Positions 1-6,242 of a stretch of DNA of 6,242 bases are shown here, piece by piece. The first letter of the stretch is position 1; the number at the start of each line of letters is the position of its first letter. Source of the DNA: a virus; the IMG/VR virus record IMGVR_UViG_3300008450_002950, positions 1-6,242 of that record. The stretch is one strand, 5' to 3'. The position numbers were made by a program, and so were the translations under genes. Below the pieces are notes generated by a model. It saw only the letters and a list, made by a program, of their open reading frames with translations, did not search any database and had not been told where the DNA came from.

Positions 1-114
1 AAGTCATCATGGCTTTAAGAATTATAGAGGGGGCAATATCGCCTAAAAGTAAGCCGGGGAGCTGTTGGCAAGTAGGCCATCACCACCTCCTGTATACAAT
101 ATTTAGGGTACCGT

Positions 115-147
115 AGTTAGGCTAGTTAAGTCAGTTAAGCAGTTAGG
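115..147. repeat. Four tandem degenerate heptamers AGTTARG (iteron-like), spaced 9, 9 and 8 nt apart
   Basis: Read directly: AGTTAGG 115-121, AGTTAAG 124-130, AGTTAAG 133-139, AGTTAGG 141-147. Related copies are AGTTACC at 220-226 and TAGTTAAGG at 661-669, on the other side of the HxlR gene. The region is non-coding, with no ORF of useful length. Confidence 0.7.
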
Positions 148-158
148 AGGCGGGGGTA

Positions 159-169
159 TAGTTTAACTA
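159..169. promoter_or_regulatory. 11-bp palindrome TAGTTTAACTA, candidate operator half-site pair
   Basis: TAGTT (159-163) and AACTA (165-169) are reverse complements around T164. A near-identical perfect palindrome, AGTTTAAACT, occurs at 774-783. Confidence 0.4.
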
Positions 170-172
170 GAA

Positions 173-188
173 AGTACCCGGGGGTACT
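173..188. repeat. Near-perfect 16-bp inverted repeat AGTACCCGGGGGTACT
   Basis: AGTACC (173-178) is the reverse complement of GGTACT (183-188), with a CGGG centre. It belongs to a cluster of GTAC-core motifs: GGGTACC 106-112, GGTACT 183-188, 202-207 and 241-246. Confidence 0.65.
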
Positions 189-211
189 ATTTACTGTATT
201 AGGTACTATTT
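183..211. repeat. Direct repeat GGTACTATTT, two copies 19 nt apart
   Basis: Identical 10-mers at 183-192 and 202-211. CTGTAT hexamers also recur at 90-95, 194-199 and 251-256, and TGTATACA at 91-98 is a perfect 8-bp palindrome. Confidence 0.65.
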
Positions 212-280
212 GGTCACTTAGTTACCTGAAAGTAATCATGGGTACTCTGTCTGTATAAGATTACCTTGGGTCCGTTCTAA

Positions 281-616
281 ATGATAACCAAGGAAATACA
301 TGATATAATAAAATTTAAAAGATCTATCCTGCACAATAAGTGGGGCATAGAGTGTATTATTACCCTTGGAGACGGGGATCCCCTTAGATTTAATGAGATC
401 CATGATAACCTACCCGGCTGCTCAGCCAAAGTATTAACCCAGGCATTAAAGAAGCTAGAAGCCCAGCATTTACTAGTTAGAACGTCTTATAACGAGATAC
501 CCCCAAGAGTTACCTACAAACTGTCTAATAACGGACTCTTAGTTCTTAAGTATGTAGAGGACTCTATACAGTTTTTTCGTGAGGCATTTATGCTCTACAA
601 TAAGTATGAAATTTAG
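281..616 (+). CDS. HxlR-family winged-helix transcriptional regulator
   Basis: 111-aa ORF. The stretch KWGIECIITLGDGDPLRFNEIHDNLPGCSAKVLTQALKKLEAQHLLVRTSYNEIPPRVTYKLSNNG matches the remembered HxlR/DUF24 signature (KW..I..L..G..RFnEl...lpgiS.kvLtq.Lk.Le..gl..R..y.e.PPRVeY.Lt..G). Confidence 0.85.
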   Translation: MITKEIHDIIKFKRSILHNKWGIECIITLGDGDPLRFNEIHDNLPGCSAKVLTQALKKLEAQHLLVRTSYNEIPPRVTYKLSNNGLLVLKYVEDSIQFFREAFMLYNKYEI

Positions 617-773
617 TGATTCACCAACTTCTACATTATTTGTTACTAAACGGTAACTTGTAGTTAAGGCACTGCACAAACTAAACCACCTCTTACTGCG
701 TTATCTTTGTCGCTTTTTCACATCTGTTGAAAAGTCAGTAACTAATATGTAGAACTATGAAGTAAATTTGGAG

Positions 774-783
774 AGTTTAAACT
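774..783. promoter_or_regulatory. Perfect 10-bp palindrome AGTTTAAACT upstream of ORF 827, candidate operator
   Basis: AGTTTAAACT is its own reverse complement. It sits 3 nt downstream of TAAATTTG (763-770), which fits the Bacteroidota -7 promoter consensus TAnnTTTG. No correctly spaced -33 TTG was found, so the promoter call itself is weak. Confidence 0.35.
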
Positions 784-826
784 TTTTAGGTATATTATAG
801 TGTAGACCTAATCAAAAACCGACCTT

Positions 827-1117
827 ATGATACACACCTGTAACATCCACTGCCATACTATGGACCTGGACAAGGCAGACCTTATGGGAATCCAGGATAA
901 GGGTAAATGGTTACCCTTTGCATTTCATCTAGATATTGTTATTGCCTGTAAACTTACTACTGATGATGAGGAAGAGATTGTTAGTGGATGCACTACTGTC
1001 TTTACTGATCACGGGGATACTTATATCATAGATACACCTTATACAGAGTTTCAAACAATCTTTCAGTTATATAACGCAGACCCTGATCCAGGAAAGTCTG
1101 AGGATCTTAATTTTTAA
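827..1117 (+). CDS. Hypothetical small acidic protein (96 aa)
   Basis: The ORF follows a 210-nt intergenic region and is Asp/Glu-rich (TTDDEEEIV, NADPDPGKSEDL). No family was recognised. The start is uncertain: in-frame ATGs also occur at 860 and 884. Confidence 0.55.
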   Translation: MIHTCNIHCHTMDLDKADLMGIQDKGKWLPFAFHLDIVIACKLTTDDEEEIVSGCTTVFTDHGDTYIIDTPYTEFQTIFQLYNADPDPGKSEDLNF

Positions 1118-1129
1118 AACCAACCCTAA

Positions 1130-1381
1130 ATGAGCACAGAAAACACCACAACCCAAGAAGAGCAAAAAGCTCCAACCAAAGAAGAGGTTATTTCTTTCTT
1201 TCAAGAACAAATTGAGGTAAAGAAAGTACAGCTTGAACTTCAAGAAATGAATACTGCACTTGCAGTAGCCAGAGCAGAAGAGCTCAAAGCACTTGCTTTT
1301 ATAGCTCAAATTACTAATCCACAGCAGCAAGAAGAAGAGTCTGATGAGCCCAAAGTCCGGAGTCTGAAAAAAGAAAAGTAA
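1130..1381 (+). CDS. Hypothetical acidic, probably coiled-coil protein (83 aa)
   Basis: The ORF is Glu/Gln/Lys-rich with heptad-like sequence (EQIEVKKVQLELQEMNTALAVARAEELKAL). Its TAA stop overlaps the next ATG (TAATG at 1379-1383), implying translational coupling to the GNAT gene. Confidence 0.6.
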   Translation: MSTENTTTQEEQKAPTKEEVISFFQEQIEVKKVQLELQEMNTALAVARAEELKALAFIAQITNPQQQEEESDEPKVRSLKKEK

Positions 1382-1812
1382 TGACCACGCTCTATAAGCT
1401 CAGAGACTACCGTGAAACGATGGTGTTTGAACGTGAGCATCCTAAAGAACTAAGATGGGATGAGCGGTATAAGCTATACATGCTCAATGAAAGTAAAGAG
1501 TGTCAAGGCATCTGGTTCAAAGATAAAAAGTATTTAGTGGCAGAAGCTATCATGACGTGGAGTTCAGATAACGTGATTCATATTGATAGTTTTACTGTTC
1601 ACCCTCTTCACCGAGGTCAAGGTTTAGGATACGATCTAATATCTACTGTCCTTGAATATGCAAAGGACATGAAAAAAGAGTACGTAACTGGTGAAGCAAG
1701 AAAAGGAGCATCTTGGCACATCTTTGAAAACCTAGGAGCAGTCCCCGTACTTCTACATAAAAACTGGCATAACACCGGGGAAGATTATATGAGTTTTAAA
1801 ATAGAACTGTAA
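1381..1812 (+). CDS. GNAT-family N-acetyltransferase (143 aa)
   Basis: FTVHPLHRGQGLGYDLISTVLEYA fits GNAT motif A (the Q/R-x-x-G-x-G/A acetyl-CoA pyrophosphate-binding loop after a beta strand), followed by a C-terminal F..LG motif (HIFENLGA). Size is typical of a minimal GNAT domain. TAATG coupling at both ends. Confidence 0.65.
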   Translation: MTTLYKLRDYRETMVFEREHPKELRWDERYKLYMLNESKECQGIWFKDKKYLVAEAIMTWSSDNVIHIDSFTVHPLHRGQGLGYDLISTVLEYAKDMKKEYVTGEARKGASWHIFENLGAVPVLLHKNWHNTGEDYMSFKIEL

Positions 1813-2183
1813 TGGCATTAGTTAATCAGGTGGAAAAAAGAGTAAGAATGAATACTTGGCAAGCTGTCAAGTATCAGATTCTTACGCACTGTTACCTGTA
1901 TGACATACCAGTTAGTGAAGCAGATCTGAACTGTCTTACTCTTCTTGCCATAGAAGGAGATCAAGAACTTACAAGTTTTTGTAGCAAGGCTTTTGAGAAG
2001 AAGATATTTTCTTCTACTCAATCTGTAAGAAACTGTCTTACAAAAGCTGAAAAGAAAAACTTGATTAAGAAAGAGGGAAAGAACAAGAAGAAGATATATA
2101 TCAATCCTGATATGAAAGTCAGCTCACGAGGAAACATTTTATTGGATTTTAAATTCCTCTGCGTTGCGACCCAGGAAAGCTAA
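1812..2183 (+). CDS. Hypothetical protein, possible winged-helix DNA-binding protein (123 aa)
   Basis: The ORF is coupled to the GNAT gene by TAATG. SSTQSVRNCLTKAEKKNLIKKEGKNKKKIYINP resembles a recognition helix plus wing of MarR-like wHTH proteins. This is pattern-level evidence only. Confidence 0.5.
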   Translation: MALVNQVEKRVRMNTWQAVKYQILTHCYLYDIPVSEADLNCLTLLAIEGDQELTSFCSKAFEKKIFSSTQSVRNCLTKAEKKNLIKKEGKNKKKIYINPDMKVSSRGNILLDFKFLCVATQES

Positions 2184-2583
2184 AGAGTTTATACCTGAAG
2201 TGGCACAGCAGACGGGCTTGAGTCCAGATGCTGTTGAAACTATTGTGTCATACTACTGGCAAGAAGTAAGGAAAAGTCTTAGTGCACTTAAACATTCCAG
2301 AGTGCACGTCACAAATCTTGGAGATTTTGTGATAAAGCATTGGAAGCTGGATGATAAGATACAAATGCTTGAGAAGTTTGAAGAGAACAACAAGCAAAAA
2401 GGTCTTCAGCAAATGACTGCTCGTTATAAAACAGCAGAAACGCTTTATGATCTAAGGAATCTTAAAAAAATAATGGAGGAAGAGCAACAAAGAGCTGAGT
2501 TTATAAAAATGCATAAACGAACAAGCTATGAGTCTAAAAGAAAGCGTGATCCGAATATGGAAGAGCAAGGGTCAGATACTTGA
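2164..2583 (+). CDS. HU/IHF-like DNA-binding protein (139 aa) with a probable TTG start
   Basis: KEFIPEVAQQTGLSPDAVETIVSYYWQEVRKSLSALKHSRVHVTNLGDFVIK follows the HU/IHF N-terminal pattern (..ia..tgLs..dve..v..f...i...L..g..V.l.glG.F.vk). The frame is open only from 2116 and contains no ATG or GTG before the conserved part. TTG at 2164 is the only standard start; it overlaps the upstream gene by 20 nt. Confidence 0.55.
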   Translation: MRPRKAKEFIPEVAQQTGLSPDAVETIVSYYWQEVRKSLSALKHSRVHVTNLGDFVIKHWKLDDKIQMLEKFEENNKQKGLQQMTARYKTAETLYDLRNLKKIMEEEQQRAEFIKMHKRTSYESKRKRDPNMEEQGSDT

Positions 2584-2857
2584 AGGTATCACAAACTCAA
2601 TCTTTAAGAAAGAGGATGTAGAGCAGATTGCTAAAGAAAGAATGAGCATCTGCCGGCAATGTGATTTGTTTACAGAAAAAGATGCTGGTTGTGTTGTTGC
2701 AGGAACAACTCCATGTTGTGATCAGACAAAAGGAGGATGTGGCTGCTCTCTTGCATTTAAAACCAGATCACTTTCTTCAGATTGTCCTTTAGGTAAATGG
2801 AAAGCTGAAATAACTCAGGCTGAAGAAGATTTTTTAAAAAGTAAGTTAGGCATTTGA
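2528..2857 (+). CDS. Cysteine-rich putative zinc-binding protein (109 aa)
   Basis: Nine Cys are arranged as CRQC ... C ... CC ... CGC ... CPLGKW. I recall this pattern from a conserved family of unknown function in Bacteroidota and their phages, unverified. The ATG at 2528 overlaps the upstream gene by 56 nt. An alternative ATG is in ERMSICRQC at 2642. Confidence 0.55.
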   Translation: MSLKESVIRIWKSKGQILEGITNSIFKKEDVEQIAKERMSICRQCDLFTEKDAGCVVAGTTPCCDQTKGGCGCSLAFKTRSLSSDCPLGKWKAEITQAEEDFLKSKLGI

Positions 2858-3237
2858 TTCCGCATGATTCTATACAACTAGAAGTGGTTCATTCAATCTA
2901 CAAGACCAAGACTATCTATCAAAAGATGGAAGGCGGGGATTTATTTCCAGAAAAGAAAGAAGTTCTTGTCAAACAGATTAAGGTAAAGAAATGGTTTAAG
3001 AAAGAATGTATTAGTTCTATAGAAGAGTACGTCAATAGTAAAAATAAGATTAGCAAACACAGATCCGTAGTGTTTGACAAATTCTCTGGAAGGTTCTACG
3101 CAACTTTTCATAGTCCTCAAGAAGTACTTCAAGCAATATCTACAACCCCTATGAATAACCCAATTGGATTCACCCATGATAATAACATTCACCCCTCAAC
3201 ATCACAAGTACAGCAGCATAGAACCAGACGATATTGA
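2854..3237 (+). CDS. Hypothetical protein (127 aa from TTG 2854, or 103 aa from ATG 2926)
   Basis: ORF on the same strand with lysine-rich composition similar to its neighbours. TTG at 2854 overlaps the upstream TGA (TTGA). No family was recognised. The 3' end overlaps the nuclease gene. Confidence 0.5.
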   Translation: MIPHDSIQLEVVHSIYKTKTIYQKMEGGDLFPEKKEVLVKQIKVKKWFKKECISSIEEYVNSKNKISKHRSVVFDKFSGRFYATFHSPQEVLQAISTTPMNNPIGFTHDNNIHPSTSQVQQHRTRRY

Positions 3238-4009
3238 CTGGTTAAGTGTAACGTCTTTTATATCAAACTTTAAACAGCCTCTTGAAGCAGATAAGATAGC
3301 AGAAAAATCAAGTAAGAGTAAAAAATCAAAGTGGTATGGTATGACTCCTGAGGCAATCAAGGATGCCTGGAAGTCAGAAGCAAACAGAGCCACAAGTCTT
3401 GGTACCTGGTATCACAACTGCAGAGAAAAAGATATATGTGAAGTAGAATCCATGGAACGCCATGGTGTAGTTATACCTGTTATAAAACCCATAGAAAAAG
3501 ACGGAGTTAAGTATTCTCCAAACCAGAAGCTTTCTAGTGGAGTCTATCCCGAGCATATGGTTTATTTAAAGTCTGCTGGTATTTGTGGCCAGTCAGATCT
3601 AGTAGAAGTGGTCAATGGAGAAGTACATATTACAGACTACAAGACCAATAAAGAAATTAAAGTAGAAGGATACACAAACTGGGAAGGCATAACACAAAAA
3701 ATGTTTCCTCCTGTTAGCCATCTTGATGATTGTAATCTTAATCACTACGCTTTACAGCTTAGTACTTACATGTTTATGATACTAAAGCATAATCCAAAAT
3801 TAAAGTTTGGAAGCTTGACAATACATCACATCATGTTTGAAGAAGTTGATAAAGATAAGTTTGGTAATCCCATAACTGCTCTTGACAGTAATGGTGATCC
3901 CATAGTAAAAGATATTGTACAGTATGATCTGCCTTATTTAAAACAAGAAGTTATTTCACTACTGCATTGGTTAGAAGATAATCGTCACAAGTTAAAAGCT
4001 AAACAATGA
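3176..4009 (+). CDS. PD-(D/E)xK nuclease, RecB/Cas4-like exonuclease family
   Basis: The ordered motifs are HHKY...SVTSF (N-terminal), GTWYH, GQSDLVEV (motif II Asp), HITDYKT (D-x-K, motif III) and YALQLSTY (QhxxY). Together these are the RecB-family nuclease signature. ATG at 3176 is preferred over the track's TTG at 3164. There is no Cas4-type C-terminal Cys cluster. Confidence 0.75.
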   Translation: MIITFTPQHHKYSSIEPDDIDWLSVTSFISNFKQPLEADKIAEKSSKSKKSKWYGMTPEAIKDAWKSEANRATSLGTWYHNCREKDICEVESMERHGVVIPVIKPIEKDGVKYSPNQKLSSGVYPEHMVYLKSAGICGQSDLVEVVNGEVHITDYKTNKEIKVEGYTNWEGITQKMFPPVSHLDDCNLNHYALQLSTYMFMILKHNPKLKFGSLTIHHIMFEEVDKDKFGNPITALDSNGDPIVKDIVQYDLPYLKQEVISLLHWLEDNRHKLKAKQ

Positions 4010-4224
4010 TTGTACAAACCATCCATGAAATACTTAATCCTTTTGATGTAGAAGTTCGTGAGCTTGGTCATGGTGTGGCTTTGTTTATGATAGCAGGGTC
4101 AATACATAGCAATCCTCAGTTTATTGTACGCTTTTATCACACGGGAGAACTAAGAACAGTAGACCAAAATGATATAAAGGTTTACGGAAATCCAACAGCA
4201 GGAGAAAATTTAATACCACAATGA
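4006..4224 (+). CDS. Hypothetical protein (72 aa)
   Basis: The ORF is coupled to the nuclease gene by an ATGA overlap (4006-4009). No family was recognised. Confidence 0.55.
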   Translation: MIVQTIHEILNPFDVEVRELGHGVALFMIAGSIHSNPQFIVRFYHTGELRTVDQNDIKVYGNPTAGENLIPQ

Positions 4225-4301
4225 AAAAGTTTATAAAGTTTTTAAAATGGCTAGAAGAATACCGGCTTGAACTTATGACAAGAGCAGGTAGACCCTGGTA
4301 A
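4221..4301 (+). CDS. Possible 26-aa micro-ORF (MKKFIKFLKWLEEYRLELMTRAGRPW)
   Basis: Not in the supplied ORF track because it is too short. Its ATG at 4221 overlaps the upstream TGA (ATGA), the same coupling used elsewhere in the window. It fills an otherwise unexplained 87-nt gap and ends with TAA at 4299-4301, 10 nt before the next ATG. The peptide is amphipathic-helix-like. Confidence 0.25.
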   Translation: MKKFIKFLKWLEEYRLELMTRAGRPW

Positions 4302-4311
4302 ATAAAATATT

Positions 4312-4824
4312 ATGATAAGATTATTTGATATACAGAACGGAAAGGTAACAGCAAGTGAACACTGCTATACTCTTAAGTTTCTTAAAAATATTATGGACTC
4401 ATATCCAGATGAACATTTGCGGATATATGCGTATCTGTTTTACATGACCTGCCCTAACCCTGATCTAAACCCCTTCTTTGATGTACCCGAAGCTGAGAAA
4501 GAAGAGATTATTCTTCAAGAGATTGATGCTGACTTTTCCACTGATGATGACCTTATTGTCGTTGGTCTTAGAATGTGTGAGAAACTATACCAAACTCCCA
4601 CGTACAGAGCGTACATGGGTATTAAGACAATGTTGGATAGGCTTGCGAAGTATATGGAGACCACGGAGATTGAGCACGGTAGAGACGGTAACATTACAGC
4701 ACTTGTTAATGCAGCCGCGAAGTTTGAGGCTATCCGGCAAAGTTTTAAAGGTACGCTACGAGATCTGGAAGAAGAGCAGCAGTCTCAAGTAAGAGGAGGA
4801 CAAAACTTAGCATACGACCAATGA
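4312..4824 (+). CDS. Hypothetical phage protein (170 aa)
   Basis: Long ORF with an acidic centre and a Gln/Glu-rich C-terminus, coupled by ATGA to the next gene. No family was recognised with confidence. A small-terminase role is possible from its position upstream of the TerL-like gene, but nothing in the sequence supports it. Confidence 0.65.
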   Translation: MIRLFDIQNGKVTASEHCYTLKFLKNIMDSYPDEHLRIYAYLFYMTCPNPDLNPFFDVPEAEKEEIILQEIDADFSTDDDLIVVGLRMCEKLYQTPTYRAYMGIKTMLDRLAKYMETTEIEHGRDGNITALVNAAAKFEAIRQSFKGTLRDLEEEQQSQVRGGQNLAYDQ

Positions 4825-5471
4825 CAATAGTATCTATAAGAGAATATAATAAAAGAATAGAGTCTGTTCTTTCTGACTCATATAAAGTTGTACTAACCGA
4901 TGAGGAGTATAACTATAGAAAAGAATATTCTGTAGACTGGTCAGATAAAAAACGAGACGCAGGTCCTCAGTACATTATTGATGACAACTACTTAGAGAAA
5001 AGAAGTACTAATGGGCACATGGGGCAAAGAGCTGTAGAGAAGTTTTTAGGTATAGAATTTACAGATCCTGATACTTCATATGATATAAAAAAGAATATCC
5101 CTGATTTATTACCTGCAGGATTACATATTGGAGTAAAGACGCATAGAGTAGCTAATCCTCCAATGCTTGATTTTATACCGGATCAAGTATATGAGAAGCT
5201 TGATCCTGTAAAACAAAAGAAAGCTCGTTATCCTCAGATTATTGTAACAAAGGATAATAACTGTGAAAAGACCTTTTATATACTTGGTGTTTATGCTCCT
5301 AAAGTTCTTTGGCATAAAGACTATGTAGATAAAGGTCTGATATATGATGATAAACTTTTAGAGAAGGGAACTAAGATTCCTTTTATTGGTGTACATAAAC
5401 GTGTACCATTTAAAAACAAGGAAGAACTAGTTTCTATCATAGGTCCTACATGGACTTCTACTGTAAGGTGA
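4821..5471 (+). CDS. Hypothetical protein (216 aa), possibly a degenerate PD-(D/E)xK-like fold
   Basis: Long ORF. GHMGQRAVEKFLG ... IPDLLPAGLHIGVKT ... QIIVT ... FYILGV resembles the G..GE.A...yLg / D / (D/E)-V-K-T layout of restriction-endonuclease-like phage proteins, but has Gly where the second acidic residue is expected. The fold call is low confidence. The TGA stop (5469-5471) lies inside the next tRNA gene. Confidence 0.65.
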   Translation: MTIVSIREYNKRIESVLSDSYKVVLTDEEYNYRKEYSVDWSDKKRDAGPQYIIDDNYLEKRSTNGHMGQRAVEKFLGIEFTDPDTSYDIKKNIPDLLPAGLHIGVKTHRVANPPMLDFIPDQVYEKLDPVKQKKARYPQIIVTKDNNCEKTFYILGVYAPKVLWHKDYVDKGLIYDDKLLEKGTKIPFIGVHKRVPFKNKEELVSIIGPTWTSTVR

Positions 5472-5551
5472 CGGAACTGGCAGACGTGCCTCCCTGTCTC
5501 GGAGGTGGATAGGGTTTCTTATCCTTGGAGGTTCAAATCCTCCCCTTACAG
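5462..5551 (+). tRNA. Class II (long variable arm) tRNA with a GTC anticodon (Asp by anticodon) on a Leu-like body; atypical
   Basis: Manual fold: acceptor TGTAAGG 5462-5468 pairs with CCTTACA 5544-5550; U8 is present. D-arm is ACG-GAACTGGCAGA-CGT (5471-5487), almost identical to the bacterial tRNA-Leu D-arm GCG-GAAUUGGUAGA-CGC. Anticodon stem CCTCC 5489-5493 pairs with GGAGG 5501-5505, with loop CTGTCTC 5494-5500. The 21-nt variable arm has stem GGATA 5507-5511 / TATCC 5520-5524. T-arm is GGAGG-TTCAAAT-CCTCC 5527-5543. The discriminator is G 5551, and no CCA is encoded. Confidence 0.7.
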
Positions 5552-5560
5552 CAAAAATAC

Positions 5561-5634
5561 CGCGGGGTGGTGTAACGGTAGCACACTGGGCTCATAACCC
5601 AGGAATCCTAGTTCAACTCTAGGCTCCGCAACCA
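5561..5634 (+). tRNA. Initiator tRNA-fMet (anticodon CAT) with encoded CCA
   Basis: Manual fold: CGCGGGG-TG-GTGT-AACGGTA-GCAC-A-CTGGG-CTCATAA-CCCAG-GAAT-CCTAG-TTCAACT-CTAGG-CTCCGCA-A-CCA. It has the C1/A72 mismatch and three consecutive G:C pairs next to the anticodon loop (GGGCTCATAACCC). The 5' CGCGGGG and 3' CGCAACCA ends match E. coli tRNA-fMet. Confidence 0.9.
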
Positions 5635-5650
5635 CATTAAATTAATTCTT

Positions 5651-5869
5651 ATGGAAAACAAAGACTATGCCCTTTACAACTATGTGTTTCACTACAATGC
5701 TCATAATAAAAACTGGGCAGCTATTCCTAGAGAACTTTATAATGACTATTGGAGTGACTCTACTAAACCTGGTATTCTAAGAAGTAAGTCTATTGATACT
5801 TTGATAGAAATCTTACACAAAACAGGTGGAGACAAAAAGAAAATAAGCAAGCTAGTTGGAGAAAAATAA
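5651..5869 (+). CDS. Hypothetical protein (72 aa)
   Basis: The ORF starts 16 nt after the tRNA CCA end. It has an aromatic-rich N-terminus (YALYNYVFHYNAHNKNWAAIPRELYNDYW). No family was recognised. Confidence 0.55.
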   Translation: MENKDYALYNYVFHYNAHNKNWAAIPRELYNDYWSDSTKPGILRSKSIDTLIEILHKTGGDKKKISKLVGEK

Positions 5870-6242
5870 ACCATATATAGAAGTACCAACCTATGAAAAT
5901 GGGCAGTGGGATCTAACTACTTTTTACTCAAGAGAAGAGTTCAGAGACTATTTGGTTAAGTTATTTAAAGAGCCTGGTCAATATGGTTTTGATGAAAGCA
6001 GTCAGATATTTAATGCTGAAGCTAGAAAATACCAACAACAAGGTTTTTACTGCCCAGCCCCTGTAAAAACTAAAGACTTTATTAATTACTGGGATGACCA
6101 GAAAATGAAGTGTAAGTCAGGCATTATTGTAAAAAATAACGGTAATGCATGGTATATCAGTCGGGATTATTACATGTGGCTAAACTTTCTTCCTATCTAT
6201 GATAAAGAAGAAAAACGTTTTGACTTTGCAAAAGTCAGAGAT
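5856..6242 (+). CDS. Probable terminase large subunit, N-terminal fragment (continues beyond the window end)
   Basis: The frame is open from 5856 to the window edge (129 codons, no stop) and is absent from the ORF track because it has no stop. GFYCPAPVKTKDFINYWDDQKMKCKSGIIV......WYISRDYYMWLNFLPI....E.KRFDF resembles my recollection of an N-terminal block in some phage TerL proteins (..yW..ek.rC..G.....yitG.hYfyLNf.pI). The only standard start before the conserved block is TTG 5856, preceded by an in-frame TAG at 5853-5855. Confidence 0.45.
   Translation, partial: MEKNKPYIEVPTYENGQWDLTTFYSREEFRDYLVKLFKEPGQYGFDESSQIFNAEARKYQQQGFYCPAPVKTKDFINYWDDQKMKCKSGIIVKNNGNAWYISRDYYMWLNFLPIYDKEEKRFDFAKVRD

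Follow-up and report, generated by a model that had tools for sequence, protein, structure and literature searches.

What kind of RNA is encoded by a phage gene that folds like a tRNA, has the class II body of tRNA-Leu and displays the GUC anticodon of tRNA-Asp? The question is raised by a stretch of viral DNA of 6,242 nucleotides (positions 1 to 6,242 of the IMG/VR record IMGVR_UViG_3300008450_002950), which as a whole is called the window below. A first-pass annotation, made from the letters alone, had described a cloverleaf of this chimeric kind and had offered three readings of it: a decoder of GAY codons, possibly charged with a non-cognate amino acid; a replacement or decoy for a host tRNA attacked by an anticodon nuclease; or a decaying pseudo-tRNA. 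Our analysis confirms the observation and supports the interpretation in part.

The tRNA-like gene of the window

The features of the gene are collected in Table 1. The structural description given by the first-pass annotation holds in full when set against the sequence, ARAGORN and the Rfam tRNA model, and the combination of a class II Leu-type body with aspartate marks is confirmed. The cloverleaf is of the 7/5 type and its D-arm of the Leu type; it has U8, G9 and A10, the 11:24 pair is C:G, and positions 33 and 37 are both U. ARAGORN calls tRNA-Asp(gtc) at 5462-5552 of the window, in the register proposed before, and the Rfam tRNA model (RF00005), for which the gathering score is 29, confirms this register in its alignment to 5462-5551, with 42.0 bits and an E-value of 1.6e-6 for the window. 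Neither ARAGORN nor Infernal found a Leu, Ser or Tyr anticodon in another register of the window; the agreement of the two programs and the covariation of the stems lead us to reject an alternative register. No Rfam family other than tRNA matches the window RNA. Megablast of the whole window against GenBank phages returned no close relative, and tRNA-Leu was the sole match in a distant blastn search of GenBank phages.

Table 1. Coordinates of the tRNA-like gene, its parts and the adjoining tRNA gene in the window
Feature	Position	Strand	Remarks
tRNA-like RNA gene, positions 1-74	5462..5552	+	91 nt; ARAGORN, Rfam tRNA; phage member with minimal variable arm
Acceptor stem TGTAAGG/CCTTACA	5462-5468 / 5544-5550	+	perfect 7-bp pairing; U1:A72 first, G2:C71 second
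D-arm: 3-bp stem ACG/CGT (5471-5473 / 5485-5487), 11-nt loop GAACTGGCAGA	5471..5487	+	Leu type; A14, A15, G18G19
Anticodon arm: stem CCTCC/GGAGG, 7-nt loop CTGTCTC (5494-5500)	5489..5505	+	
Pentanucleotide G34 U35 C36 U37 C38	5496..5500	+	GTC 5496-5498, T37 5499, C38 5500
Variable region, 21 nt	5506..5526	+	plain hairpin, stem GGATA(G)/(T)TATCC; without the cellular GGGUUGACCAC domain
T-arm GGAGG-TTCAAAT-CCTCC	5527..5543	+	
Discriminator G73 (5551) and C74	5551..5552	+	CCA not encoded; AAAAA next
tRNA-Met(CAT), initiator-type	5561..5634	+	8 nt downstream of the tRNA-like RNA; ARAGORN; Rfam tRNA 58.6 bits

A conserved family in viruses and Bacteroidota

Identical or near-identical copies of the window RNA occur at loci L001, L003, L004 and L008, and diverged copies were found in over 100 sequences from viruses and over 60 from bacteria. 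The sample of distinct members comprises 168 sequences; viral contigs contributed 105 and Bacteroidota chromosomes 63, the latter being mostly retrieved with a pattern that forced GTCTC. A genome scan that demanded the window's own anticodon stem gave no match; the bacterial hits came from a looser pattern.

Double-sided changes are present in 17 of the 20 stem pairs, against 9.2 ± 1.3 in shuffles, and 99.8% of the stem cells are paired (alignment A2). The covarying pairs in this alignment are spread over the acceptor stem (7/7), the D-stem (2/3), the anticodon stem (5/5) and the T-stem (3/5), and the D-stem is paired in 100% of cases though it was never a criterion for the selection of members. 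The tertiary nucleotides U8, A14, G18G19, G53, T54, T55, C56 and A58 are conserved across the family, and within the T-arm G53, T54, T55, C56, A58 and C61 are invariant. Compensatory changes across all four stems in the relatives mark the RNA as real, far beyond chance, and on this comparative evidence the product of the window gene is a true RNA of tRNA shape whose structure is under constraint. The probability that we are dealing with a decaying pseudo-tRNA or a chance cloverleaf is practically negligible. A U37 and a long arm on a tRNA with an Asp anticodon often lead annotation pipelines to suspect a pseudogene, but the score lies above the gathering threshold, the stems covary, and the RNA is conserved across a bacterial phylum and in hundreds of viral contigs; strong covariation and wide conservation thus refute the third reading of the first-pass annotation. 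Nor did any shift of register, pseudogene-level score or random drift in the stems appear to undermine the initial description.

The two ends of the molecule are strongly constrained. G73 and C74 were found in 168/168 members, C at position 75 in only 17/168, and CCA is not encoded even where the neighbouring phage tRNAs encode theirs. U1:A72 forms the first pair in all 63 bacterial members and in 92 of the 105 viral ones, and 13 viral members have A1:U72. G10 is present in about 65% of the members, and 11:24 is U:A in about 80%. The base at position -1 (T 86, A 39, C 42, G 1) is unpaired with G73.

In the searched literature, including a sequence-motif search, no description of this RNA was found, and Rfam has no model for it; the family is undescribed in both. 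The RNA in five long-form viral loci and eight bacterial loci gave no Rfam match, which is due to the inserts of the long-form and bacterial copies, and ARAGORN called none of the cellular copies.

Anticodon loop and inserted domains

The consensus of the loop in the family is Y32 N33 G U C U C. In three viral samples collected with the loop unconstrained, GTC was kept in 45/47, 51/51 and 31/31 sequences, and the second of these had U37 in 50/51 and C38 in 49/51; five of five additional bacterial copies whose loop was not forced kept GTC and C38. U37 occurs in about 92-98% of the family members. U33, counted by the first-pass annotation among the usual landmarks, is indeed present in the window, but in the family any of the four bases may stand at this position, whereas U37 is fixed: the least biased sample has U 26 / C 24 / A 1, G33 is common among bacteria, and U33 is lost in 20-50% of the members. 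The near-universal elongator hallmark, U33 together with a purine at 37, is therefore missing both from the window, which has U33 but U37, and from the family, where position 33 is free. As a control, other distinct tRNAs at the same loci have U33 in 64/66 and a purine at 37 in 65/66 cases. The single anticodon switch seen, at locus L098, is from GUC to GUU (Asn), with loss of C38. The Asn system is the sister class IIb system of Asp.

The proposal to look for conservation of the loop and the long arm in relatives gave a divided result: the GUCUC sequence is kept and the stems change in a compensatory way, but the arm is not constant. The variable region measures from 5 nt (L078) to more than 100 nt (102 nt was noted). 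Cellular copies always possess in it a conserved structured GGGUUGACCAC domain (alignment A3), which covaries and reaches about 100 nt, and short forms were found in viral contigs only among the 168 members. D-loop hairpins of 10-20 nt are also maintained in members of the family. The viral variants lose the extra domain, never the acceptor features. We rejected the idea that the insert in the variable region is an intron or a small ribozyme, as it has no Rfam match, is below the size of group I introns and is a covarying domain in a cellular gene. Comparison of the sequences identifies the window RNA as a stripped-down phage version of an RNA encoded on Bacteroidota chromosomes. The deviant loop, first regarded as a peculiarity of the phage, is likewise chromosomal (YNGUCUC) in many Bacteroidota.

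Genomic context

The initiator tRNA-Met gene beside the window RNA has the C1xA72 mismatch, GGG/CCC in the anticodon stem and an encoded CCA. The same pair of genes is found at loci L001, L003, L004, L008 and L013, and the two RNAs are probably part of one transcript. Phage copies are often located within tRNA arrays; this location and the U33 of the window copy fit a translational role. In the near-complete phage arrays the RNA is accompanied by canonical tRNA-Asp genes with the loops CTGTCAC or TTGTCAC, and this coexistence led us to reject the idea that it replaces tRNA-Asp there.

Beside the phage copies no conserved partner protein or enzyme was found beyond lineage synteny (ORF170, ORF72 and terminase). 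A GNAT gene of the window (1381-1812) was considered as an aminoacyl-tRNA-dependent transferase by analogy with Mom of phage Mu (PMC13219725), and no support for this was obtained. The recurrent neighbours of the RNA in the two phage sets include no acetyltransferase, which is a weak test as the GNAT falls at the margin of the 4-kb context.

In Bacteroidota genomes 64 tRNA-like matches were obtained, and the titled loci bearing the RNA are all from Bacteroidota. The chromosomal gene is usually divergent from an Lrp/AsnC-suf operon, with synteny to an Lrp/AsnC-type regulator and sufB/sufC at 34 bacterial loci, and the bacterial copies have a terminator and a promoter-like motif of their own. 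No partner enzyme was found beside them, and no conserved neighbour beyond Lrp/AsnC-suf. An attP or integration remnant of a host tRNA was rejected as an account of the RNA gene, since the gene is complete and evolves by compensatory changes, and the bacterial copies reside with their promoter-like motif and terminator at a syntenic core locus.

Relation to known tRNA classes

Bacterial tRNA-Asp(GUC) has in common with the family G34-U35-C36, C38, G73, G2:C71, the 7-nt loop and the 7/5 arrangement of acceptor and T stems, but it is a class I tRNA with a variable loop of 4-5 nt and not a class II Leu-type body with 5 to more than 100 nt. It also has A37, U33, G1:C72 and G10, whereas the family has U37 and U1:A72 and conserves neither U33 nor G10. 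Some of these differences speak against recognition by AspRS: the bacterial Asp element G10 is replaced by A in the window and kept in only about 65% of the family, and U1:A72 stands in place of the G1:C72 of bacterial tRNA-Asp. Class II synthetases such as AspRS approach the tRNA from the side of the variable loop, so that a long arm could clash with the enzyme.

The similarity with tRNA-Leu extends over a near-identical 5' half and includes the acceptor xGTAGGG, U8 G9, the 3-bp D-stem, the D-loop GAACTGGCAGA, A15 and U48. The phage tRNA-Leu genes L106 (TAG) and L002 (GAG) share the D-arm of the family, and the sequences which combine this D-arm with A73 are only genuine tRNA-Leu genes with Leu anticodons. 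In tRNA-Leu, however, A73 is essential and the first pair is G1:C72, while the family has G73, U1:A72, a fixed GUC and a long arm that is either dispensable or greatly enlarged. Given the near-identical 5' half and core, a class II tRNA-Leu was probably the ancestor of the family. With bacterial tRNA-Ser the window RNA shares G73, G2:C71, C11:G24 and the long arm, but tRNA-Ser has C72 and a large arm where the window has A72, the family mostly U:A at 11:24, and L078 an arm of 5 nt.

The allo-tRNAs of bacteria and metagenomes also combine a long arm and G73 with anticodons other than those of Ser, Leu and Tyr, GUC being among the commonest (PMC5389517). They have, however, 8/4 or 9/3 acceptor/T arrangements (a 12-bp branch), Sec-like D-arms, about 35 anticodons and a presumed Ser identity, and their hosts are Clostridia, Proteobacteria and Acidobacteria (PMC5389517); our family is of the 7/5 type, its D-arm is like that of tRNA-Leu, its loop has a single fixed sequence, and it is found in Bacteroidota and their phages. 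The 8/4 architecture was rejected for it, the -1 base being unpaired with G73 and the 7-bp acceptor and 5-bp T-stem both covarying. tRNA-Sec resembles the family in being an extra species of class II type with G73, charged by the synthetase of another amino acid and routed off elongation (PMC7609411), but its 8/5 or 9/4 arrangement, UCA anticodon, U33 and partners SelA, SelB and SECIS do not apply here. Phage tRNAs that escape host defences are likewise phage-encoded with deviant anticodon loops, examples being the tRNA-Lys of T5 against PARIS, tRNA-Tyr against retron effectors and the loop variants of mycobacteriophages (PMC11464382, PMC11555353, PMC10264068). These are class-typical variants of a normal host tRNA with U33 and a purine at 37, whereas the loop of the family is the host's own. 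The tRNA-Other of Bacillus cereus and the nev-tRNAs of nematodes are cellular, combine mismatched body and anticodon and do little or no normal decoding; they belong to other lineages and bodies and are without the fixed Asp identity set and the conserved inserted domain. The nematode nev-tRNAs keep the Leu discriminator A73.

Aspartate identity elements and the possible role of the RNA

The five strong determinants of aspartate identity are G73, G34, U35, C36 and C38 (review PMC9976931). The window has all five, which the first-pass annotation had already listed, and the family keeps them with few or no exceptions, the rules themselves being derived from E. coli, T. thermophilus and yeast and not from Bacteroidota. 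The fixed set of the family is made up of G34, U35, C36, C38, G73 and G2:C71, which pertain to Asp identity, plus U37, C74 and U1:A72. G73 is an antideterminant for LeuRS (PMC9976931), and by the published identity rules it would exclude charging by LeuRS and TyrRS.

We tentatively favour, judging from sequence features, the reading that the family is a special-purpose tRNA-like RNA recognised by AspRS which would not serve as a routine GAY decoder, the window copy being the phage form of this Bacteroidota family. The window RNA would be co-transcribed with the adjacent initiator tRNA, processed by RNase P and 3' trimming, and completed at its end by the CCA-adding enzyme. Its L-shaped fold with a Leu-type core is shown by the covariation and the conserved tertiary nucleotides. 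Host AspRS would then read the anticodon loop and G73 and charge the RNA with aspartate, while G73 would repel LeuRS and TyrRS. The Asp-charged RNA may act not as an ordinary decoder of GAC and GAU, but as a special-purpose carrier or regulator, in a pathway that Bacteroidota have in common; the conserved variable-region domain of the cellular copies probably serves to recruit a partner, and the phage copy could supply or hijack the activity of the RNA during infection. A plain GAY-decoding tRNA, the first of the readings proposed initially, is disfavoured because position 33 is free, U37 is fixed and canonical tRNA-Asp is present in the same arrays.

It is possible, if rather doubtful, that Bacteroidota and their phages possess an extra class of aminoacyl-tRNA, which would be aspartylated, kept off elongation by N33/U37, fitted with a conserved domain for binding protein or RNA and devoted to a dedicated process. 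Should this be true, the candidate processes are tRNA-dependent amidation (U1:A72 being a GatCAB determinant), non-ribosomal aminoacyl transfer and context-specific recoding, and the RNA would have a status like that of tRNA-Sec, with a minimal form co-opted by phages.

Among the competing explanations, an elongator role is unlikely. The RNA would be a tRNA-Asp isoacceptor remoulded from tRNA-Leu, a spare that reads GAC and GAU and is unrecognised, owing to its altered positions 33 and 37 and its foreign body, by toxins or anticodon nucleases directed at tRNA-Asp; phages would carry it to sustain translation once the tRNA-Asp of the host is attacked. The canonical 7/5 cloverleaf, the 7-nt loop, the fixed GUC and G73 agree with this, as do the position within phage tRNA arrays next to an initiator tRNA, the U33 of most members including the window copy, and the precedent of phage anticodon-loop variants that evade tRNA-targeting defences (PMC10264068, PMC11464382, PMC11555353). 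The hosts, however, encode the same loop at a conserved chromosomal locus, which weakens the idea of a phage-made escape from nucleases, the second of the initial readings, as the loop change is not specific to phages. Moreover, decoders hardly ever lack U33, as a substantial part of the family does, or have the pyrimidine 37 that is fixed here, and the neighbouring tRNAs show neither deviation; this reading leaves the extra domain conserved in the cellular copies unexplained, and no defence system or nuclease specific for tRNA-Asp was found in the literature searched. The fixed GUCUC with positions 32 and 33 free does resemble a protein-recognition site, and an uncharged mimic, in which the anticodon arm imitates tRNA-Asp and, as a regulator or decoy similar to the 6S or Y RNAs, titrates a protein that binds tRNA-Asp (AspRS, a toxin or a modification enzyme), would accommodate both this and the conserved extra domain, as well as the unencoded CCA beside CCA-encoding phage tRNAs. 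We consider it quite unlikely, since the family never departs from G73, C74 and a perfectly paired 7-bp acceptor stem, for which use of the 3' end, i.e., aminoacylation, is the simplest account, and since the phage variants shed the extra domain but never these acceptor features.

A carrier for the conversion of Asp to Asn, charged by AspRS and amidated by GatCAB, which selects U1:A72, for the supply of Asn or its rare insertion at Asp codons, is improbable. It would account for U1:A72 in every bacterial and most viral members where both the Leu-type ancestor and tRNA-Asp have G1:C72, and amidation is reported to owe its specificity to U1-A72, while G1-C72 and U20a of tRNA-Asp prevent it (review). 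An Lrp/AsnC-family regulator is the chromosomal neighbour, but the Lrp gene is more simply seen as part of the suf operon, and the first pair is A1:U72 in some viral members. GatCAB also reads the D-loop corner, which here is Leu-type and often carries a large hairpin. Still less probable is a mis-incorporating tRNA charged by the anticodon-blind SerRS or LeuRS, which would place Ser or Leu at Asp codons in the manner of nematode nev-tRNAs and bacterial allo-tRNAs. The class II body, G73 and the long arm as Ser elements, the C11:G24 of the window copy and the existence of allo-tRNAs with the GUC anticodon (PMC5389517) speak for it. Against it, A73, the key Leu element, occurs in 0/168 members; the long arm is dispensable, with 5 nt in L078; C72 is absent and 11:24 mostly U:A; the core is Leu-type and not Ser-type; and the invariant C38 and anticodon would be purposeless for SerRS or LeuRS. 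The non-cognate charging with Leu or Ser that had been suggested initially is therefore unlikely, with G73 acting against LeuRS (PMC9976931) and the long arm needed by SerRS being expendable.

If the favoured reading, an AspRS-recognised RNA outside routine decoding, is correct, then a conserved tRNA-derived RNA that was missed by standard tools exists in a major bacterial phylum that lives in the gut, in soil, in freshwater and in the sea, and many viruses of Bacteroidota copy it. The nucleotide signature leads to a sharp, testable prediction, namely charging by AspRS without normal decoding; were it true, this would point to a role for aminoacyl-tRNA that is new and lies outside routine translation, or to a novel kind of translational specialisation. 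Some of the odd tRNAs known from phage biology would then be RNAs captured from the host that have a function of their own, and not helpers for codon usage or escape mutants. As regards annotation, the class is at present mislabelled as tRNA-Asp in phages and goes unannotated in bacteria.

Results

The window RNA and its setting

The 91-nt tRNA-like RNA of the window (the GUC RNA, a name also used here for its family) was assigned by ARAGORN to tRNA-Asp(gtc), and the Rfam tRNA model, with 42.0 bits (gathering score 29, E = 1.6e-6), spans its full length in that register. Every structural landmark of the class II, Leu-type body with a GUC anticodon and U37 that the first-pass annotation had read is present. 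The tRNA-Met(CAT) that follows is of the initiator type, as its C1xA72 mismatch, its GGG/CCC anticodon stem (G29-G31:C39-C41) and its encoded CCA indicate. Among the surrounding phage ORFs are those for an HxlR-type regulator, a GNAT, an HU-like protein and a PD-(D/E)XK exonuclease, and immediately beyond the window end a large terminase gene and a portal gene were found; the GUC RNA and the initiator tRNA, directly upstream of these packaging genes, probably share one transcript. The terminase has ~25% identity to its counterparts in crAss-like, Flavobacterium and Cellulophaga phages, a likeness that suggests a Bacteroidota host.

In several small phages of this lineage the GUC RNA and the initiator-type tRNA-Met(CAT) are the sole RNA genes. 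The 216-aa ORF that runs 10 nt into the GUC RNA gene has no Pfam or PHROG match, and in its relatives the stop is moved by one codon, still inside the RNA. A hit to the Rfam model RAGATH-19 is weak (25.5 bits, E = 0.89; gathering score 85.6) and almost certainly due to chance.

Coordinates of the RNA genes and associated features (L handles are loci fetched from viral contigs or bacterial genomes)
Feature	Location	Strand	Description
GUC RNA gene	window 5462-5552	+	TGTAAGG-TG-ACG-GAACTGGCAGA-CGT-G-CCTCC-CTGTCTC-GGAGG-TGGATAGGGTTTCTTATCCTT-GGAGG-TTCAAAT-CCTCC-CCTTACA-G-C
tRNA-Met(CAT)	window 5561-5634	+	8 nt downstream of GUC RNA; ARAGORN, Rfam tRNA
216-aa ORF	window 4821-5471		TGA stop = tRNA positions 8-10 of GUC RNA
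RAGATH-19 match	window 3752-3869		within exonuclease ORF
Long-form GUC RNA	L029 4452-4599		example of a member with the variable-region domain
Long-form GUC RNA	L111 3130-3275		same
GUC RNA family member	L098 12916-13002		anticodon GTT (Asn), loop CTGTTTA; U37 and G73 kept, A38
'tRNA-His(GTG)'	L023 15-105	-	91 nt; class II Ser/Tyr-like body, variable arm ~20 nt, C73
tRNA-Met	L023 3685-3771	-	87 nt; initiator-like, variable region ~20 nt
'agtc' tRNA	L031 3663-3738		76 nt; 8-nt anticodon loop CAAGTCAA
'agtc' tRNA	L060 12808-12883		same
'agtc' tRNA	L064 607-682	-	same
Three tRNA-Leu genes	L089 975-1204	-	TAA, TAG, CAA; each 75 nt, 5-nt variable loops, no long arm
'tRNA-Leu(GAG)'	L085 3000-3090		91 nt; aberrant loop GTGAGCG (no U33, C37)

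The viral family

No close relative of the window RNA was found in GenBank phages; IMG/VR yielded near-identical copies, together with relatives that have 83% identity in the neighbouring protein. The acceptor, D and variable-arm stems of these relatives show compensatory changes, and their loop is TAGTCTC, not CTGTCTC. The check proposed in the first-pass annotation, whether loop and long arm are conserved in related phages with compensatory changes, gave such changes in the stems and a nearly constant GTCTC; the full CTGTCTC loop and the arm length vary.

The scans were repeated with different parts of the RNA left unconstrained. With the loop free, 18 stretches matched; wherever ARAGORN placed a tRNA at the position of the match, it carried GTC. 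With the whole anticodon arm free, 47 distinct 5' halves carried NNGTCTC (41), TTGTCTG (2), CAGTCAC (2), CTGTCCC (1) and CTGTTTA (1; GTT, Asn), and one sequence was a genuine tRNA-Leu(TAG) with G1:C72 and A73. A third scan was anchored solely on the T-loop and the insert of the long forms, which carry a large conserved variable-region domain that short forms such as the window copy lack; its 51 parseable members had the loops TCGTCTC (20), CTGTCTC (20), TTGTCTC (6), CCGTCTC (2), TCGTCTA (2) and CAGTCAC (1). When loci were picked via the terminase and not via the RNA, the GUC RNA lay upstream of the terminase in 44 of 66 usable loci, with GTC in 31/31 distinct sequences; none was found within 2.5 kb in the other 22, one of which (L367) is on one contig with L041, where the RNA is present.

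Fold and anatomy

In a 50-sequence core alignment, 17 of the 20 stem pairs show both-sided changes; shuffles gave 9.2 +/- 1.3, and sliding the 3' partners no more than 8. The percentage paired is inflated because paired acceptor, T and anticodon stems were a criterion of membership; the D-stem, though never a criterion, is 100% paired with two covarying pairs. The GUC RNA is a tRNA-shaped RNA that folds and is under selection; its class II core is of the Leu type, and its 5' half is common to genuine tRNA-Leu genes in two of the loci (L002 and L106). A pseudogene reading is excluded.

Among 168 distinct members (63 bacterial, 105 viral), G73 and C74 are invariant and G2:C71 nearly so. Position 75 is C in only 17, so that CCA is not encoded in the family. 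U1:A72 is present in 63/63 bacterial and 92/105 viral members, the remaining 13 having A:U, and leader position -2 is A in 148/168. All four bases occur at position 33, and U37 is found in 92-98% of members; among 66 further distinct tRNAs taken from these loci as a control, U33 occurs in 64 and a purine at 37 in 65. Lengths are 108-195 nt in bacteria and 74-171 nt on viral contigs, short forms being confined to viruses within this sample. The variable region spans 5 nt (L078) to about 100 nt, with plain hairpins such as that of the window RNA (21 nt) in between. Long forms, bacterial and phage alike, share one domain of about 75-100 nt that is absent from Rfam. It has three helices, in which 9 of 12 predicted pairs show compensatory changes; its GGGUUGACCAC is invariant, and its AUAAA and CUAA internal-loop strands are conserved. 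A hairpin insert of 10-20 nt is found in the D-loop of about 30 of the 51 members of one viral sample.

A cellular gene in Bacteroidota

The pattern AACTGGCAGAC-N10-GTCTC, searched in one genome for each GTDB species, matched at least 120 stretches, at least 64 of them GUC RNA. Among the matches listed, all RNA-bearing loci with a displayed title belong to Bacteroidota: Chitinophaga, Pedobacter, Algoriphagus, Cyclobacterium, Fulvivirga, Ohtaekwangia and Arcticibacter, and MAGs of Cytophagales, Flavobacteriales, Sphingobacteriaceae and Bacteroidaceae. The remaining 64 listed, mostly from other phyla, were not parseable as GUC RNA and are largely chance matches in coding sequence. Most bacterial members were fetched by this pattern, which forces the D-loop and GTCTC; five extra copies in the same loci, whose loop was not forced, have NNGTCTC and G73 in 5/5.

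The bacterial gene is divergent from an Lrp/AsnC-family regulator in at least 34 loci, some of which also have sufB and sufC farther on. A trailer and a terminator hairpin of its own follow the gene, many copies are preceded at 18-70 nt by a Bacteroidota-type TAnnTTTG motif, and two or three tandem copies are frequent. ARAGORN called no GUC RNA copy in 49 bacterial loci and just one ordinary tRNA in the whole of them; Rfam assigned no family to the bacterial copies, and a literature search that included the sequence motifs themselves found no description of the RNA.

A trailer motif (TTTAGGTTTAT..TTGGTTA, or GGTTATTTTGGGTTTATTGTTAATTGAC) is conserved between the RNA 3' end and the terminator in Cyclobacteriaceae and Sphingobacteriaceae (e.g., L119, L122, L140, L194, L150), directly 3' of the RNA, and recurs next to each tandem copy. 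In five Chitinophaga loci (L111, L124, L132, L164, L176) the downstream gene encodes a protein of Methyltransf_4 (PF02390), the TrmB-type family that methylates G46 in the tRNA variable loop; this adjacency may be a coincidence.

Discussion

The window RNA passes a generic tRNA test, and no Rfam family other than tRNA matches the GUC RNA. It lacks, however, the A73 that defines tRNA-Leu, the C72 and obligatory arm of tRNA-Ser, the class I body, G1:C72 and purine 37 of canonical tRNA-Asp, and the 8/4 or 9/3 architecture of allo-tRNAs (PMC5389517). It is best seen as a tRNA-Leu-derived RNA of phylum-wide occurrence, with aspartate marks and an expandable variable region, common to Bacteroidota and their phages.

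By identity rules from model organisms, the strong aspartate determinants are G34, U35, C36, C38 and G73, with G2:C71 a minor one (PMC9976931), and exactly these five are the family's invariant nucleotides outside the structural core. Loop variation sits at the non-determinant positions 32 and 33. The sole anticodon switch observed leads to GUU, for Asn, whose class IIb system is the sister of that for Asp; C38 is lost alongside. The variable arm, which SerRS would require, can be dispensed with. For these reasons recognition by AspRS, probably with charging, is the best-supported step predicted for the RNA. G73, A72, the dispensable arm and the fixed C38 speak against incorporation of Ser or Leu at GAY codons, and the invariance of the G73-C74 end and acceptor stem has no explanation in an uncharged decoy.

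The freedom at position 33, the fixed U37, the retention of large conserved inserts and the coexistence with canonical tRNA-Asp argue against a routine decoder of GAY codons; near-complete phage tRNA sets (L089, L238, L241, L295, L313, L317, L339) have canonical tRNA-Asp, with loops CTGTCAC or TTGTCAC, beside the GUC RNA. A spare, toxin-resistant tRNA-Asp isoacceptor is plausible, given the location in phage tRNA arrays and U33 in most copies, but it leaves unexplained why hosts encode the identical loop, why an extra domain exists and why C, G or A is tolerated at position 33. No partner protein recurs beside the gene in phage or bacterial neighbourhoods. For the step after the putative charging by AspRS, one lead is U1:A72, named in a review as the determinant for tRNA-dependent amidation of Asp-tRNA (PMC9976931). 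If the GUC RNA is recognised by AspRS and is not a routine decoder, the window RNA would be a minimal version that has kept the acceptor end and anticodon arm and lost the cellular domain.

Other unusual tRNAs occur in the same loci. The long-arm tRNA-His and tRNA-Met of L023 indicate that long-arm versions of normally short-arm tRNAs are not confined to the GUC RNA. The 76-nt tRNA that ARAGORN reads as 'agtc' is a second GUC-containing oddity, with an A1xA72 mismatch, discriminator C and no U33; in L031 and L060 it lies ~250 nt upstream of a long-form GUC RNA. The phage contig L089 combines its short-arm tRNA-Leu trio with a long-form GUC RNA and a canonical tRNA-Asp, and in L085 the 'tRNA-Leu(GAG)' and the GUC RNA are neighbours within a phage tRNA array.
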